Positions 1-4,588 of a stretch of DNA of 4,588 nt are shown here, piece after piece (positions within the stretch are counted from its first letter, which is position 1; every line of letters begins with the position of its first letter). The notes under the pieces were generated by a model, which was not told the DNA's origin, made no database searches, and saw only the letters and a list, made by a program, of their open reading frames with translations. Location: IMG/VR virus record IMGVR_UViG_2671180903_000007; one strand, written 5' to 3'. Source of the stretch: a virus (lineage: Duplodnaviria > Heunggongvirae > Uroviricota > Caudoviricetes). The position numbers and the translations under genes are program-made.

Positions 1-2
1 CG

Positions 3-767
3 GTGGTACTGGCAACCCGTAAATACGTGGATGATGAAGTCCTGGAATTAAAGCTGTATGTGGATGACCAGATGAGAAACCACATTGCCGCACAGGATCC
101 TCATACCCAGTATGCGCAGAAACATAATCCGACATTTACCGGAGAACCAAAAGCGCCGACGCCTGCCGCAGGAAATAACACCACGCGGATTGCGACCACT
201 GAGTTTGTTCAGGCCGCTATTACCGCTCTGATTAACGGTGCGCCAGCCACACTGGACACACTGAAAGAAATTGCCGCGGCCATTAACAATGACCCGAAAT
301 TCAGCACCACCATTAACAATGCGCTGTCAGGTAAGCAGCCACTGGATGAGACGCTGACTCATTTGAGCGGAAAGGATGTTGCTGGTCTTCTCGCATACCT
401 TGGTTTGGGAGAAGCGGCAAAACGGAATGTAGGTAACGGGCAAAACCAAATTCCGGATATGGCGGCATTTGCCAGTTCACTTTCATCAACGGGTTTTCAA
501 AAACTCCCTTCAGGTCTGATTATTCAGTGGGGTATTGTCAGTGGAGCATCAAACTATACGGTGACTTACCCGGTAACATTCCCAAATCGTTCACTTGCGC
601 TGTTGGCTGTGCCACATACAACGTCGGTGGCTGGTATATCTGCAATGGGCATAGCGAACTGTTCTGATATCAGCAAATCACAGTTCTATATAATTGTTGG
701 CGGTATATCTCAGGGAGAAATTGTCAAACATGAAAGGTCCTGTTTTTGGGTAGCAATCGGTGTATAG
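3..767 (+). CDS. Phage tail fibre protein, 5'-partial: constant region fused in frame to variable C-terminal cassette Sv1
   Basis: ORF is open from the window edge, so the gene continues upstream. It contains the tail-fibre-type motif TTEFVQAAITALINGAPATLDTLKEIAAAINND. The segment from codons LGLGEAAKRNVG (nt ~399 onward) to the stop at 765-767 is duplicated as a mirror copy on the minus strand at 2860-3222. This is the pattern expected for a constant region joined to an invertible variable tip, as in Mu S or P1 gene 19. Confidence 0.85.
   Translation: MVLATRKYVDDEVLELKLYVDDQMRNHIAAQDPHTQYAQKHNPTFTGEPKAPTPAAGNNTTRIATTEFVQAAITALINGAPATLDTLKEIAAAINNDPKFSTTINNALSGKQPLDETLTHLSGKDVAGLLAYLGLGEAAKRNVGNGQNQIPDMAAFASSLSSTGFQKLPSGLIIQWGIVSGASNYTVTYPVTFPNRSLALLAVPHTTSVAGISAMGIANCSDISKSQFYIIVGGISQGEIVKHERSCFWVAIGV
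388..413 (+). other. Crossover site L for a Gin/Hin/Cin/Pin-type invertase (26 bp, imperfect dyad)
   Basis: TTCTCGCATACC-TT-GGTTTGGGAGAA fits the recalled half-site pattern of gix/hix sites (TTnnnnnAAACC / GGTTTnnnAnAA around a central dinucleotide). Identity with the other two copies begins exactly at the central TT (400-401). The site lies inside the tail fibre reading frame. The consensus is from memory, not from a search. Confidence 0.6.
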
Positions 768-775
768 GTATATCT

Positions 776-1171
776 ATGATTTATTTCTCAAAATCGACTA
801 ATGGTTTTTTCTTTGATGGTATAAACAGCGACATGCCTGCTGACATTGTTGAGATAAGTACAGACTTATACAATGAATTAATTGCCGGACAGCAGGAAGG
901 GGGTAAATTAATCACGTCAGATGAAAATGGTTTACCGGTACTGAAATCTCCGGCGATTGATTATGTCGCACGTGCTGAAAATCAGCGAATGCAGTTACTT
1001 GCTCATGCCGATAATGTCACAGCTGACTGGCGGGTGGAATTAATGCTTGGTGATATCAGCAGTACAGATAAAGAAAAACTATCTGCCTGGATGGATTACA
1101 AAAAAGAAGTAAAAGCCGTCGACACTTCGACGGCTCCTGAGATTAGCTGGCCTGAGTTACCGGAGGCGTAG
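776..1171 (+). CDS. Tail fibre assembly protein (Tfa chaperone, type 1), cognate to Sv1
   Basis: C-terminus VDTSTAPEISWPELPEA matches the conserved Tfa C-terminal motif (P2 G / Mu U / lambda Tfa family). It lies immediately downstream of Sv1 on the same strand. Start is placed at ATG 776, preceded by AGGT 6 nt upstream; the ORF track start at 746 is a TTG inside the fibre gene. Confidence 0.8.
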   Translation: MIYFSKSTNGFFFDGINSDMPADIVEISTDLYNELIAGQQEGGKLITSDENGLPVLKSPAIDYVARAENQRMQLLAHADNVTADWRVELMLGDISSTDKEKLSAWMDYKKEVKAVDTSTAPEISWPELPEA

Positions 1172-1586
1172 GCCATTCAATATCTGGCGCACCGGAAGTA
1201 TCGACCAGCTCCAGTGTGTCCAGATAATCCAGCCACAAATTATATTGCGCCAGTTCCTCACCTTTCAGACGACCAATAGCCGCTTTACCGGGCCATTGCT
1301 TACTGTTCATGTATTCGTTAGCCTGGTTAATTAGTAGCTGTCTTTCTGATTCAGTAATTTCAATAAGCTCTTCATGCGTGGGTGGAGGAATATCTGCCCA
1401 CGCAGGCAGCCCATCATCTCCGGCAATACGGATTTTTCCTTGTGGCGGTTCAGCCATAAACTCACTGATAATATTTTGATTCACCTCCTTTGCATCTGAT
1501 AAATCCCATCCCTCTGATTTATATTTATCAATCATATCCACAGGGAAAAAAGCATTATGCCTTGCGCTATAAACATATTCGTTCAT
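1143..1586 (-). CDS. Tail fibre assembly protein (Tfa chaperone, type 2), cognate to Sv3
   Basis: C-terminus LVDTSGAPDIEWPTPPVTQAS is the same Tfa motif. It is convergent with the type-1 Tfa gene and overlaps it by 29 bp at the 3' ends. Start is placed at ATG 1586; an alternative GTG at 1595 would give a protein beginning MIY, like type 1. Confidence 0.8.
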   Translation of the reverse strand: MNEYVYSARHNAFFPVDMIDKYKSEGWDLSDAKEVNQNIISEFMAEPPQGKIRIAGDDGLPAWADIPPPTHEELIEITESERQLLINQANEYMNSKQWPGKAAIGRLKGEELAQYNLWLDYLDTLELVDTSGAPDIEWPTPPVTQAS

Positions 1587-1634
1587 ATAAATCACCCTGA
1601 ATAAAATTACTCACCAACAGCCCACCAACTGTAA

Positions 1635-1660
1635 TTCATCGATACATTGGTTTGGGAGAA
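1635..1660 (+). other. Crossover site M (third copy, direct orientation relative to L; outer half-site atypical)
   Basis: 1647-1680 is identical to 400-433 (34 bp, starting at the central TT). The outer half TTCATCGATACA (1635-1646) is not a dedicated half-site; all but its last base belongs to the inverted-repeat arm, being the Sv3 C-terminal codons read on the opposite strand. Confidence 0.4.
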
Positions 1661-2020
1661 GCGGCAAAACGGAATGTAGGAACAGGGGAAAATCAGATAC
1701 CGGATATGGCTTCTTTTGCCAGTGGTGATGGATGGATGAAATTACCCAACGGTAAAATCCTGCAATATGGTCGAGGTGCGGTTACGCCGACATTATCGAC
1801 GCAAACAATGAGAATTACATTCAGCATCCCTTTTCCTAAAAAAGTGGACTGCGCCATGCTTACCCATTCTGGTGATGGTGGTGCGCCTTTAGGCGCTGGA
1901 CGGGGATTCGTGATGACTGCAGAAGGTCCAACACTAACCGGTTTTAATTCCGCTTACAGAACTGCATCAACCAGTTCCACAGTATCGATGAATTACAGTT
2001 GGTGGGCTGTTGGTGAGTAA
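1652..2020 (+). CDS. Silent alternative tail-fibre C-terminal cassette Sv3 (no start of its own)
   Basis: Begins with the same GEAAKRNVG crossover-encoded peptide as Sv1 and then diverges (GTGENQIPDMASFAS vs GNGQNQIPDMAAFAS) into an unrelated ~110-aa tip. It is in the same frame relative to the crossover centre as Sv1. The M in the ORF track is a TTG codon inside the crossover sequence. It is followed on the same strand by Tfa type 2. Confidence 0.6.
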   Translation: MGEAAKRNVGTGENQIPDMASFASGDGWMKLPNGKILQYGRGAVTPTLSTQTMRITFSIPFPKKVDCAMLTHSGDGGAPLGAGRGFVMTAEGPTLTGFNSAYRTASTSSTVSMNYSWWAVGE

Positions 2021-2040
2021 TTTTATTCAGGGTGATTTAT

Positions 2041-2484
2041 ATGAACGAATATGTTTATAGCGCAAGGCATAATGCTTTTTTCCCTGTGGATATGATTGAT
2101 AAATATAAATCAGAGGGATGGGATTTATCAGATGCAAAGGAGGTGAATCAAAATATTATCAGTGAGTTTATGGCTGAACCGCCACAAGGAAAAATCCGTA
2201 TTGCCGGAGATGATGGGCTGCCTGCGTGGGCAGATATTCCTCCACCCACGCATGAAGAGCTTATTGAAATTACTGAATCAGAAAGACAGCTACTAATTAA
2301 CCAGGCTAACGAATACATGAACAGTAAGCAATGGCCCGGTAAAGCGGCTATTGGTCGTCTGAAAGGTGAGGAACTGGCGCAATATAATTTGTGGCTGGAT
2401 TATCTGGACACACTGGAGCTGGTCGATACTTCCGGTGCGCCAGATATTGAATGGCCTACGCCTCCGGTAACTCAGGCCAGCTAA
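2041..2484 (+). CDS. Tail fibre assembly protein type 2, second copy (identical to 1143-1586)
   Basis: Identical 150-aa translation in the ORF track. ATG 2041 is preceded by AGGGTGA; an alternative GTG lies at 2032. It sits directly downstream of Sv3 on the same strand. Confidence 0.8.
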   Translation: MNEYVYSARHNAFFPVDMIDKYKSEGWDLSDAKEVNQNIISEFMAEPPQGKIRIAGDDGLPAWADIPPPTHEELIEITESERQLLINQANEYMNSKQWPGKAAIGRLKGEELAQYNLWLDYLDTLELVDTSGAPDIEWPTPPVTQAS

Positions 2485-2851
2485 TCTCAGGAGCCGTCGA
2501 AGTGTCGACGGCTTTTACTTCTTTTTTGTAATCCATCCAGGCAGATAGTTTTTCTTTATCTGTACTGCTGATATCACCAAGCATTAATTCCACCCGCCAG
2601 TCAGCTGTGACATTATCGGCATGAGCAAGTAACTGCATTCGCTGATTTTCAGCACGTGCGACATAATCAATCGCCGGAGATTTCAGTACCGGTAAACCAT
2701 TTTCATCTGACGTGATTAATTTACCCCCTTCCTGCTGTCCGGCAATTAATTCATTGTATAAGTCTGTACTTATCTCAACAATGTCAGCAGGCATGTCGCT
2801 GTTTATACCATCAAAGAAAAAACCATTAGTCGATTTTGAGAAATAAATCAT
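2456..2851 (-). CDS. Tail fibre assembly protein type 1, second copy (identical to 776-1171)
   Basis: Identical 141-aa translation in the ORF track. Mirror of 776-1171 under p to 3627-p. Confidence 0.8.
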   Translation of the reverse strand: MIYFSKSTNGFFFDGINSDMPADIVEISTDLYNELIAGQQEGGKLITSDENGLPVLKSPAIDYVARAENQRMQLLAHADNVTADWRVELMLGDISSTDKEKLSAWMDYKKEVKAVDTSTAPEISWPELPEA

Positions 2852-2859
2852 AGATATAC

Positions 2860-3222
2860 CTATACACCGATTGCTACCCAAAAACAGGACCTTTCATGTT
2901 TGACAATTTCTCCCTGAGATATACCGCCAACAATTATATAGAACTGTGATTTGCTGATATCAGAACAGTTCGCTATGCCCATTGCAGATATACCAGCCAC
3001 CGACGTTGTATGTGGCACAGCCAACAGCGCAAGTGAACGATTTGGGAATGTTACCGGGTAAGTCACCGTATAGTTTGATGCTCCACTGACAATACCCCAC
3101 TGAATAATCAGACCTGAAGGGAGTTTTTGAAAACCCGTTGATGAAAGTGAACTGGCAAATGCCGCCATATCCGGAATTTGGTTTTGCCCGTTACCTACAT
3201 TCCGTTTTGCCGCTTCTCCCAA
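2860..3222 (-). CDS. Silent inverted copy of the Sv1 tail-fibre C-terminal cassette
   Basis: 120-aa translation identical to the C-terminal 120 aa of the 3-767 ORF. No constant region is upstream of it on the minus strand; the apparent start is TTG inside the crossover sequence. Confidence 0.6.
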   Translation of the reverse strand: MGEAAKRNVGNGQNQIPDMAAFASSLSSTGFQKLPSGLIIQWGIVSGASNYTVTYPVTFPNRSLALLAVPHTTSVAGISAMGIANCSDISKSQFYIIVGGISQGEIVKHERSCFWVAIGV

Positions 3223-3239
3223 ACCAACGTTTTATGGAA
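3214..3239 (-). other. Crossover site R (inverted relative to L)
   Basis: Plus strand reads TTCTCCCAAACC-AA-CGTTTTATGGAA. Read on the minus strand it is TTCCATAAAACG-TT-GGTTTGGGAGAA, with the same centre and inner half as L and an outer half that differs from L. Inverted-repeat identity ends exactly at the central dinucleotide (3226-3227). Confidence 0.6.
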
Positions 3240-3328
3240 TCGGTTAAATATGATGTTGAAAGAAGGGAATGTCCTAGTATTGATTGTTAGATAAAAATGG
3301 AAAGTGCTGATTGTAACGGTATATTTTA

Positions 3329-3364
3329 AGATGGTAACACCAAATGGTGCTACCATCTTTATTA
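3329..3364. terminator. Candidate intrinsic terminator hairpin
   Basis: AGATGGTAACACC-AAAT-GGTGCTACCATCT forms a 13-bp stem with one mismatch and a 4-nt loop, followed on the plus strand by TTTATTAG. It lies just below the stop of the minus-strand 105-aa ORF (3366-3368) and downstream of the fibre cassette on the plus strand, so it could act in either direction. Confidence 0.4.
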
Positions 3365-3365
3365 G

Positions 3366-3683
3366 TTATCTGTTCCTTCTGAGGATTCCGCTACTCCCTT
3401 GTGTTGTAGGGTTTAATTTTTTCCAATAATGATAACCTTGTGATGTAATCCTTAGAGAGGCAGTATCTACACTCCATCCATCATTACTTTCAGGAGAACC
3501 ATCGAAGATTACCTTTCCTGTAAGATACCCATCGTCATGCAGAAAGGCGATATATCCATAAACTTCTTTTAAATCACCAATTTCATTGACTAGGCGTTCC
3601 CACGCTTGAACAGTGATTCTCTCTGGATAGGCTTCGACAAAATATTTCAGTGTGGTAGTTTTTTTATTGATATCGATGTTCAT
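3366..3683 (-). CDS. Hypothetical protein, 105 aa, solitary gene in an AT-rich island (possible moron)
   Basis: ATG at 3683-3681 with AGGA about 8 nt upstream on the minus strand. Hand-counted GC is about 32-38% here versus about 60% in a hand-counted stretch of the invertase gene. I cannot assign it to a family by eye. Confidence 0.65.
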   Translation of the reverse strand: MNIDINKKTTTLKYFVEAYPERITVQAWERLVNEIGDLKEVYGYIAFLHDDGYLTGKVIFDGSPESNDGWSVDTASLRITSQGYHYWKKLNPTTQGSSGILRRNR

Positions 3684-3881
3684 CAGATTTTCCTTTTATT
3701 GAGGTCAACCTATCTTACCATACTTAATTGTTTCACATGGGAATGCTAAGTGGGCTATGTATCCACTATCAGTAAATATTCTTATCCAGCAAGATTACTG
3801 TAACTGAGAGCCCCATAGCCTTGTCCGCTTGTACATATATAGATAATTCTGTGTCATTATTCTGTTTTTATAGGGATTTTT
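3684..3881. promoter_or_regulatory. Divergent AT-rich intergenic region, presumed to hold promoters for the 105-aa ORF and the invertase
   Basis: 198-bp non-coding gap between divergently oriented start codons. A possible -10 GATAAT at 3842-3847 and -35-like TTGTCC at 3821-3826 have suboptimal spacing. An AGGGA ribosome-binding site lies 9 nt before ATG 3882. Promoter positions are not established. Confidence 0.3.
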
Positions 3882-4475
3882 ATGCGTATAGGTTATGTTC
3901 GTGTATCAACAAATGACCAGAACACGGAATTGCAGCGTAACGCGCTCGAGTGCGCAGGATGTGAGCTGATTTTTGAGGATAAAATCAGCGGCACGAAGTC
4001 CGACCGACCGGGACTGAAAAAACTGCTCAGAACATTATCAGCAGGTGACACTCTGGTAGTCTGGAAGCTGGACCGGCTGGGGCGTAGTATGCGGCATCTG
4101 GTCATTCTGGTTGAGGAGCTGCGCGAACGCGGCGTTAATTTTCGCAGCCTGACAGATGCTATTGATACCAGCACGCCGATGGGGCGTTTTTTCTTTCATG
4201 TGATGGGTGCTCTGGCTGAAATGGAGCGAGAACTCATTGTCGAGCGGACACGCGCCGGACTGGAAGCGGCCAGAGCCAAAGGGCGTATTGGTGGCAGACG
4301 TCCGAAGCTCACCGCGAGTGAGTGGGAACAGGCAGGACGGTTGCTGGCTGCGGGTGAATCACGTCAACGCGTGGCGCTGATTTTTGATATTGGCCTGTCC
4401 ACGCTCTATAAAAAATTCCCCTCATCAGCGGCAAAGAATAAATTGTGTCATCCCTTAGCCAACCGGGACAAATAG
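3882..4475 (+). CDS. Serine DNA invertase, Gin/Pin/Cin/Hin family (small serine recombinase)
   Basis: N-terminus MRIGYVRVSTNDQNTELQRNAL with the catalytic Ser at codon 9 (3906-3908). Central motifs DTLVVWKLDRLGRS and MGRFFFHVMGALAEMERELI, and a C-terminal helix-turn-helix region (GLSTLYKK), are near-identical to Gin of Mu and Pin of e14 as I recall them. Confidence 0.95.
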   Translation: MRIGYVRVSTNDQNTELQRNALECAGCELIFEDKISGTKSDRPGLKKLLRTLSAGDTLVVWKLDRLGRSMRHLVILVEELRERGVNFRSLTDAIDTSTPMGRFFFHVMGALAEMERELIVERTRAGLEAARAKGRIGGRRPKLTASEWEQAGRLLAAGESRQRVALIFDIGLSTLYKKFPSSAAKNKLCHPLANRDK

Positions 4476-4534
4476 CCTGACATCTCCGGCACAACTGAAA
4501 ATATCACTCACCCATTAACCACGGAGTTAAACGG

Positions 4535-4588
4535 ATGAGTGACTATCATCACGGCGTGCAGGTGCTGGAGATTAACGACGGCACCCGC
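4535..4588 (+). CDS. Tail sheath protein (P2 FI-like), 3'-partial, first 18 codons
   Basis: MSDYHHGVQVLEINDGTR closely matches my recollection of the N-terminus of the P2 FI major tail sheath protein. GGAG lies 9 nt upstream of ATG 4535. The ORF runs off the window end. Confidence 0.6.
   Translation, partial: MSDYHHGVQVLEINDGTR

Follow-up and report, generated by a model that had tools for sequence, protein, structure and literature searches.

A third crossover site at the joint of a 1,247-bp duplication in a Gin-type tail-fibre switch of a P2-like Escherichia coli prophage

What is a third crossover site doing in a phage tail-fibre switch: does it belong to a selected multiple-inversion system, or is it a by-product of the flipping enzyme or of sequence assembly? 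The question is posed by the stretch of DNA analysed here, 4,588 nt in length and called the window below, in which two crossover sites, L and M, are in direct orientation and a third, R, is inverted relative to both. Comparison of the sites, a search for their core and simulation of their inversions agree on this arrangement, which the initial annotation had proposed. The window contains, in order, a tail-fibre gene, the invertible region, a 105-aa open reading frame (ORF), a serine recombinase gene and the first codons of a tail sheath gene. Its tail-fibre gene amounts to the 3' two-thirds of a P2 gene-H-like gene, the window beginning 427 nt inside it; in the closely matching prophage of PK5074 (locus L002), the full gene is annotated as a "phage tail protein" and U1 as a tail fiber assembly protein. 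Two types of cassette are present (Sv1/U1 and Sv3/U2), not three, and the complete copy of Sv3 is silent in the present arrangement because it lacks the constant part. The features are collected in Table 1.

Table 1. Features of the window, with positions counted from its first nucleotide.
Feature	Position	Strand	Remarks
Constant part of the P2 gene-H-like tail-fibre gene	1..399	+	ORF 3-767; identical to PK5074 (locus L002)
Site L	388..413	+	TTCTCGCATACC TT GGTTTGGGAGAA; centre 400-401
Sv1 tip cassette, expressed copy, in frame with the constant part	400..767	+	ORF 3-767; Gp53-like_C domain, E = 2e-14
Left arm of the 1,246-nt perfect inverted duplication	400..1645	.	Partner arm 1982-3227
U1, tail-fibre assembly chaperone for Sv1	776..1171	+	Caudo_TAP, E = 1.8e-24
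U2, tail-fibre assembly chaperone of the Sv3 cassette, left inverted copy	1143..1586	-	From the ORF list
Orphan fragment: last 12 codons and stop codon of Sv3, severed at the joint	1607..1645	-	Exact reverse complement of 1982-2020
Site M	1635..1660	+	TTCATCGATACA TT GGTTTGGGAGAA; centre 1647-1648; orientation as L
Sv3 tip cassette, complete, without the constant part	1647..2020	+	ORF 1652-2020; Gp53-like_C, E = 2.2e-13
Q, intact copy of the site look-alike	1967..1992	-	TTCATCGATACT GT GGAACTGGTTGA; proposed break point of the ordinary locus in the making of M
U2, right copy	2041..2484	+	Caudo_TAP, E = 1.8e-30; identical to the left copy
U1, right inverted copy	2456..2851	-	Exact mirror of 776-1171
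Sv1, right inverted silent copy	2860..3227	-	ORF 2860-3222; exact mirror of 400-767
Site R	3214..3239	-	Reverse complement TTCCATAAAACG TT GGTTTGGGAGAA; centre 3226-3227
Gin-type serine DNA invertase	3882..4475	+	Resolvase and HTH_7 domains

The recombinase matches the Pfam families Resolvase (E = 2.9e-52) and HTH_7 (E = 1.1e-12), and its residues 1-184 match the structures of Mu Gin (3uj3, E = 8.5e-94; 4m6f, E = 2.2e-92). Together with the enzyme, the form of the sites, the inverted position of L and R around mirror-image tips and chaperones, and the occurrence of both orientations are those of switches of the Gin/Cin/Pin/Hin type; the window is a Gin-type tail-fibre host-range switch in what is, by the genes that adjoin the locus, a P2-like E. 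coli prophage. In switches of this type, the 5' part of the invertase gene contains a recombinational enhancer that depends on Fis. Over its first 249 nt, the invertase gene in the window aligns without gaps to Mu gin, in the region where the Mu enhancer lies.

Crossover sites were written as 26 bp in a 12-2-12 layout, that is, as imperfect inverted 12-bp half-sites around a 2-bp centre. A 34-nt core (TTGGTTTGGGAGAAGCGGCAAAACGGAATGTAGG) is present in three exact copies, at 400-433 and 1647-1680 on the plus strand and at 3194-3227 on the minus strand, where chance would give none (0/200 shuffles). The sites agree with the invertase crossover consensus in PMC4134206 (Table 3). No other site of the locus scores as high as L and R (21-30 bits), and these two also come first on a matrix trained solely on the EC958 sites. 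The left, outer half-site of M scores 3.1 bits, versus 12.7 for L and 7.8 for R, a value no lower than those of natural outer half-sites beside the same core in two other elements (3.0 bits in locus L017 and -0.6 bits in locus L020).

Comparison with other genomes accounts for M. Among 5,426 complete E. coli genomes, not one matches the window over 80% of its length, and the best matches span 3,341 bp, which is 4,588 less 1,247, the spacing from L to M. These matches represent an ordinary two-site locus, of which both orientations, each 3,341 bp long, are found in public genomes: Sv1 is on the constant part in state A (PK5074, NZ_CP072802; also L007 and L008), and Sv3 is on the constant part in state B (L001 from strain 5444, L004 and L010). 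Both fusions to the constant part are intact ORFs in these natural loci. The two-site switch of the P2-like prophage in PK5074 differs from the window in the duplication, outside of which the two are 100% identical: the window matches it without a difference over 1-1645 and 3228-4588, and, after in silico L-R inversion of PK5074 to state B, over 1647-4588. In terms of the PK5074 prophage, the window can be written exactly as state A[1-1645] + "A" + state B[400-3341]. An otherwise ordinary two-site switch with two cassettes only has thus gained a 1,247-bp duplication, and site M is its novel joint, not the third site of a designed three-site system, as which it had initially been read. The block from 400 to 1645 holds a crossover centre, the Sv1 tip, the chaperones U1 and U2 and the 39 nt with which Sv3 ends. 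Where the orphan fragment stops in the window, the ordinary state-A locus goes on with the remainder of Sv3, and no protein in the ORF list crosses the M joint.

The joint can be read to the base. The inverted repeat of 400-1645 with 3227-1982 extends over 1,246 nt with 0 mismatches and breaks at 1646-1647. Base 1646 is A, whereas the ordinary locus has T and the sites L and R have C and G, respectively, at the equivalent position; from this base, and from the end of arm identity at 1645, it follows that the sharp junction is real. The initial annotation had described it in just these terms, with an odd base that matches neither partner and shared crossover sequence from 1647 onward, and had remarked that it sits at a crossover centre; the genuine partner is indeed broken at its 2-bp centre, and all three centres lie where that annotation had placed them. 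The region from 1620 to 1680 reads ...TTCATCGATACATTGGTTTGGG..., with TTCATCGATACNNTGGTTTGGGAGAA as the string of the M joint and TTCTCGCATACCNNGGAACTGGTTGA as that of the reciprocal joint. M is a hybrid in which the left half is the 3' end of Sv3, on the other strand, followed by the untemplated A at 1646 and then by the centre and inner half-site of a genuine site. To an outer half-site, the last codons of Sv3 bear a weak resemblance. As a full 26-bp site, their intact copy, Q, ranks 17-29 among 6,632 strand-positions (top 0.3-0.4%), and its left half would rank within the top 1% among random 12-mers. Its score is about 0-3 bits, versus 21-30 bits for L and R, and it has GT in place of TT at the centre.

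The M joint is absent from the 5,426 complete E. coli genomes, from the INPHARED phages, the GTDB representative genomes and IMG/VR, and from the JGI metagenomes; it is also absent from all 21 contigs that an exact-protein look-up found to carry the same Sv3 allele. A similar look-up with the 105-aa ORF gave no second instance of it either. The structure of the window is a singleton, a one-off.

The consequences of the additional site for the switch were derived by simulation of every inversion between oppositely oriented sites. Four arrangements result, which form a square: L x R leads from S0 (the window) to S1, L x M from S1 to S3, L x R from S3 to S2, and M x R from S2 back to S0. The constant part is joined to Sv1 in S0, S1 and S2 and to Sv3 in S3 only. 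As had been claimed at the outset, inversion by L x R and inversion by M x R each keep Sv1 on the constant part. It had also been claimed that Sv3 would be turned on only by a deletion between L and M or by an M x R inversion with L x R as the next step. Both of these routes hold, the deletion product being the exact ordinary state-B locus, but they are not the only ones: another pair of steps, first L x R and then L x M, also leads to S3, because L x R makes M inverted relative to L.

The form S2, a single M x R flip away from the window, reads state A[1-1645] + A + state A[400-end]; it is the ordinary locus duplicated perfectly in tandem. The 1,246-nt arms are inverted in S0 and S1 and are direct repeats in S2 and S3. 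Homologous recombination (RecA) inverts DNA between inverted repeats and deletes it between direct repeats. In S0 and S1, RecA would flip the 336-bp centre, with the same outcome as L x R, while in S2 and S3 it would delete the duplication and restore the ordinary switch. Given such a collapse of S2 and S3, the duplication variant would be expected to be short-lived once M is used, and a short life would fit its absence from other genomes.

We think that the duplication probably stems from a real and recent aberrant exchange that was initiated by the invertase. A single unequal exchange between two copies of the locus would have joined the centre of L to Q, and it probably began with the invertase cutting at L. 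Since the product is a duplication, two DNA copies would have taken part, which may have been sister chromosomes or replicating phage genomes; since base 1646 is untemplated, the event would not have been a clean conservative exchange. Two histories could have led to the window. If both copies were in state A (history a), the exchange would have given the tandem duplication S2, which a later M x R flip would have turned into the window form; under this history, M would be active. If a state-A copy met a state-B copy (history b), the window form S0 would have arisen directly.

An origin through the invertase is supported by the absence of any mismatch to PK5074 state A over 1-1645 or to in silico state B over 1647-4588, by the break of the genuine partner exactly at its 2-bp centre and in register with Q, and by the rank of Q and of its left half. 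It is further supported by the natural occurrence of both states of the 3,341-bp locus, by the products of an M x R flip (the perfect tandem duplication) and of an L x M deletion (the exact ordinary state B), by the kinship of the enzyme to Gin and the fit of the sites to the consensus, by a window sequence that is clean, in contrast to the consensus artefact described below, and by the quasi-site recombination documented for Cin. A random chimera would hit the crossover centre with a probability of roughly 1 in 3,000, which points to the invertase, or to a break that the invertase had made. Against this origin stand the absence of the joint from every collection searched, the A at 1646, where T would be expected from Q and C from L, and the low score and GT centre of Q, while the perfect identity of the arms is equally predicted by an artefact. 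In addition, Gin-type invertases strongly disfavour intermolecular and direct-repeat reactions and carry out inversion in cis within a Fis/enhancer invertasome (PMC3798978). An exchange between two copies would be unusual for a Gin-type enzyme because the invertasome normally limits it to inversion in cis. Two other ways to account for the joint were considered. A synonymous variant of Sv3 (ACT for ACA at 1979-1981) has no support as the source of base 1646, since L001, L002, L003 and the intact copy in the window all have ACA, and a shifted register of cleavage at Q was rejected because it predicts a joint one base shorter than that observed.

The alternative that deserves most attention is an artefact of assembly or finishing, in which a culture contained both orientations of the switch, the two states were merged into one record and the duplication exists in no cell. 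Taken literally, the window consists of the two states of a single prophage, A and B, joined end to end; it is a singleton, and a stray base lies at the join. Spurious alternative-orientation contigs of such prophage switches can enter chromosomes as artefactual duplications (PMC4134206), and a public assembly of the same prophage, that of E. coli MLI108K2, is garbled by mixed orientations. Moreover, since the base next to the invertible segment differs with the state (C or G), a de Bruijn unitig of this segment would be expected to start precisely at the crossover centre. An artefact is therefore a serious rival, although we regard it as unlikely. The only sequence that the two partners share at the break is ATAC..TGG, far below the length of a k-mer or an overlap, and no graph walk or read overlap would link position 1645, inside the segment, to a site. 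The left break is in register with a look-alike that ranks in the top 0.3-0.4%, which would not be so for a random chimera. Finally, the window is otherwise error-free and is 1,247 bp longer, whereas the consensus artefact in MLI108K2 is noisy and has kept the length of the locus.

The MLI108K2 locus (L005, NZ_CP117001.1) is a noisy mosaic with many indels in the part equivalent to 400-3227 of the window; at 3,319 bp, the length of the locus is nearly conserved. Along the segment, it starts out 100% identical to state A and ends at about 55%, and its agreement with state B goes up from about 60% to 100%; it looks like a consensus of long reads of mixed orientation. The sister isolate MLI108K1 has a clean state A. 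Fold-back or hairpin reads and palindromic graph walks (C-I-C' or F'-I-F) were considered as well and rejected as specific mechanisms, since the window has its left flank in forward orientation and a segment cut internally, a layout that they do not match. We also set aside as irrelevant a locus that looked rearranged, L023 (GCA_048142745.1, DBFYIB010000001.1), whose break is in the constant region and not at a crossover site. Its homology to the ordinary locus starts 110 nt into the constant region equivalent to that of the window, with a portal gene upstream, and the truncation or rearrangement in it has nothing to do with the crossover sites.

A duplication made independently of the invertase is a further alternative, and one that we hold to be quite improbable. 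Slippage or unequal exchange at the 4-nt microhomology ATAC (395-398 and 1642-1645) would have made the duplication, an ordinary inversion would have followed, and the coincidence with a crossover centre would be due to chance. Bacteria commonly form tandem duplications at microhomologies, S2 is simply such a duplication in tandem, and the motif ATAC NN TGG is present in both partners at the break; the one-base discrepancy (C expected, A seen) is no worse here than under an exchange begun by the invertase. Yet chance would have had to place the break within 2 nt of a crossover centre (roughly a few in 3,341) and to recreate a full 26-bp site in register, and the step from the tandem form to the form observed would still require M x R recombination by the invertase.

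That M was selected and kept to enlarge or tune the repertoire of a functional three-site multiple-inversion system, of the p15B Min type, is very improbable: an identical 34-bp core at three sites, a left half of M that is no worse than those of L017 and L020, and four reachable states would be in keeping with it, but there are only two different cassettes, no repertoire is gained because the extra copies are 100% identical over 1,246 nt, no relative has inherited the arrangement, homologous recombination should erase the tandem duplications present in two of the four states, and M truncates a copy of Sv3 to leave a 39-nt orphan fragment.

Returning to an exchange begun by the invertase, a more specific version can be put forward only tentatively, and we would not expect it to hold in all of its parts: that the duplication is real, that the invertase made it at a cryptic look-alike inside a cassette and that M is proficient in recombination. 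If so, the window would be a two-site Gin-type switch caught in the act of gaining a third site and a duplicated block of cassettes, raw material for the evolution of multi-site clusters such as p15B Min; in the meantime it would be a four-state switch with a 3:1 bias to one tail-fibre tip.

Among known systems, the G segment of Mu with its invertase Gin (and likewise the C segment of P1 with Cin and the P segment of e14 with Pin) resembles the window in its small serine invertase, that of the window being closely related to Gin, in its 26-bp 12-2-12 sites, in its mirror-image Sv/U and U'/Sv' cassettes after a constant tail-fibre part, and in an invertase gene that lies immediately beyond one of the sites. 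The window has a third, direct site, where Mu stops at two, and a 1.25-kb duplicated block; the window also differs in its host element, a P2-like prophage, and in the 105-aa ORF between R and the invertase gene. Prophage Phi2 of EC958 has a two-site tail-fibre switch with sites of the same type (TCCTCAATTACC TT GGTTTAGGAGAA), the inversion of which is seen in PacBio reads (PMC4134206); the third site again sets the window apart.

More than two crossover sites in one tail-fibre switch, some of them direct, are a feature that the window shares with the Min cluster of plasmid p15B. That cluster is said to have six sites and several different cassettes in a stable, inherited design, and its enzyme reportedly inverts without deleting. 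In the window, the third site brings no new cassette and is the joint of a one-off duplication. The window is not a Min-type multiple-inversion cluster in any meaningful sense, as it has no new cassette and is not inherited. For the Min cluster, we refer to Sandmeier et al. (1990) as cited in PMC5903667.

The joining of a genuine site to a weakly similar sequence, with a changed joint, has its closest counterpart in the quasi-site events of Cin. The Cin enzyme is said to recombine, on occasion, a genuine cix site with a quasi-site, with localized conversion, and mismatched centres reportedly leave sequence changes at the joint; these events are described as intramolecular inversions on plasmids. 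The window differs in being a duplication that involves two DNA copies and in having its odd base, 1646, just outside the 2-bp centre. The Cin events are the subject of Iida and Hiestand-Nauer (1986, 1987), references 50 and 51 of PMC4134206.

The window does not represent a new kind of system: it stems either from a rare side reaction of the flipping enzyme or from an error of assembly. If it is real, it would be a case from nature in which an invertase of the Gin family set off an illegitimate exchange, duplicative in outcome, at a quasi-site, and it would show how extra crossover sites and spare copies of cassettes can originate in phage host-range switches; the four states, the 3:1 bias in expression and the RecA-driven collapse are the predictions that follow from it. 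If it is an artefact, it would be a caution that invertible prophage segments recurrently yield wrong assemblies and annotation, as in MLI108K2 and in the RefSeq records of L001 and L003. In both cases, the underlying switch is textbook biology, and our understanding of it is unchanged.

In L001 and L003, the RefSeq annotation of locus positions 1074-2273 has a tail-fibre "pseudogene" ("missing C-terminus", 1074-1463) and a separate gp53-like ORF. The fusion of the constant part to Sv3 in state-B genomes is an unbroken ORF of 399 aa, and the pseudogene call is an annotation artefact of the less common orientation.

The 105-aa ORF lies at 3366-3683 of the window on the minus strand, between site R and the invertase gene, and has no match in Pfam, PHROGs, NCBIfam or PADLOC. 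Many prophages of this type carry it; it is missing from the O157-type locus L003, in which the invertase gene comes directly after R. The distance from the start of the invertase gene to R is 655 bp in the window versus 67 bp in Mu, a spacing that may matter for the distance from enhancer to site. A 15-nt inverted repeat with a 2-nt gap (AAGATGGTAACACCA / TGGTGCTACCATCTT) occupies 3328-3359, just past the stop codon of the 105-aa ORF on the side of R, and was not called in a terminator scan. Within the cassettes, the convergent chaperone genes U1 and U2 overlap by 29 nt (1143-1171), and a 22-nt palindrome (AGCCGTCGACACTTCGACGGCT), which may be a bidirectional terminator or a hairpin, is found directly upstream of this overlap at 1114-1135 and again at 2492-2513.

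A protein 100% identical to Sv3 is encoded in three different elements, L016, L017 and L020 (around 5001-5833 of each), where it is followed, in the position of U2, by a gene for a 147-aa assembly protein. L016 is an e14-like element beside icd, with a 184-aa invertase and an HNH gene; L017 is another P2-like tail module, and L020 has a different baseplate context. The outer half-sites of the three elements (ACTGATATTTTG, AAGACGAAAACG and ATATTTGAAAGG) differ and are more degenerate. The Sv3 cassette appears to have been swapped between inversion systems.
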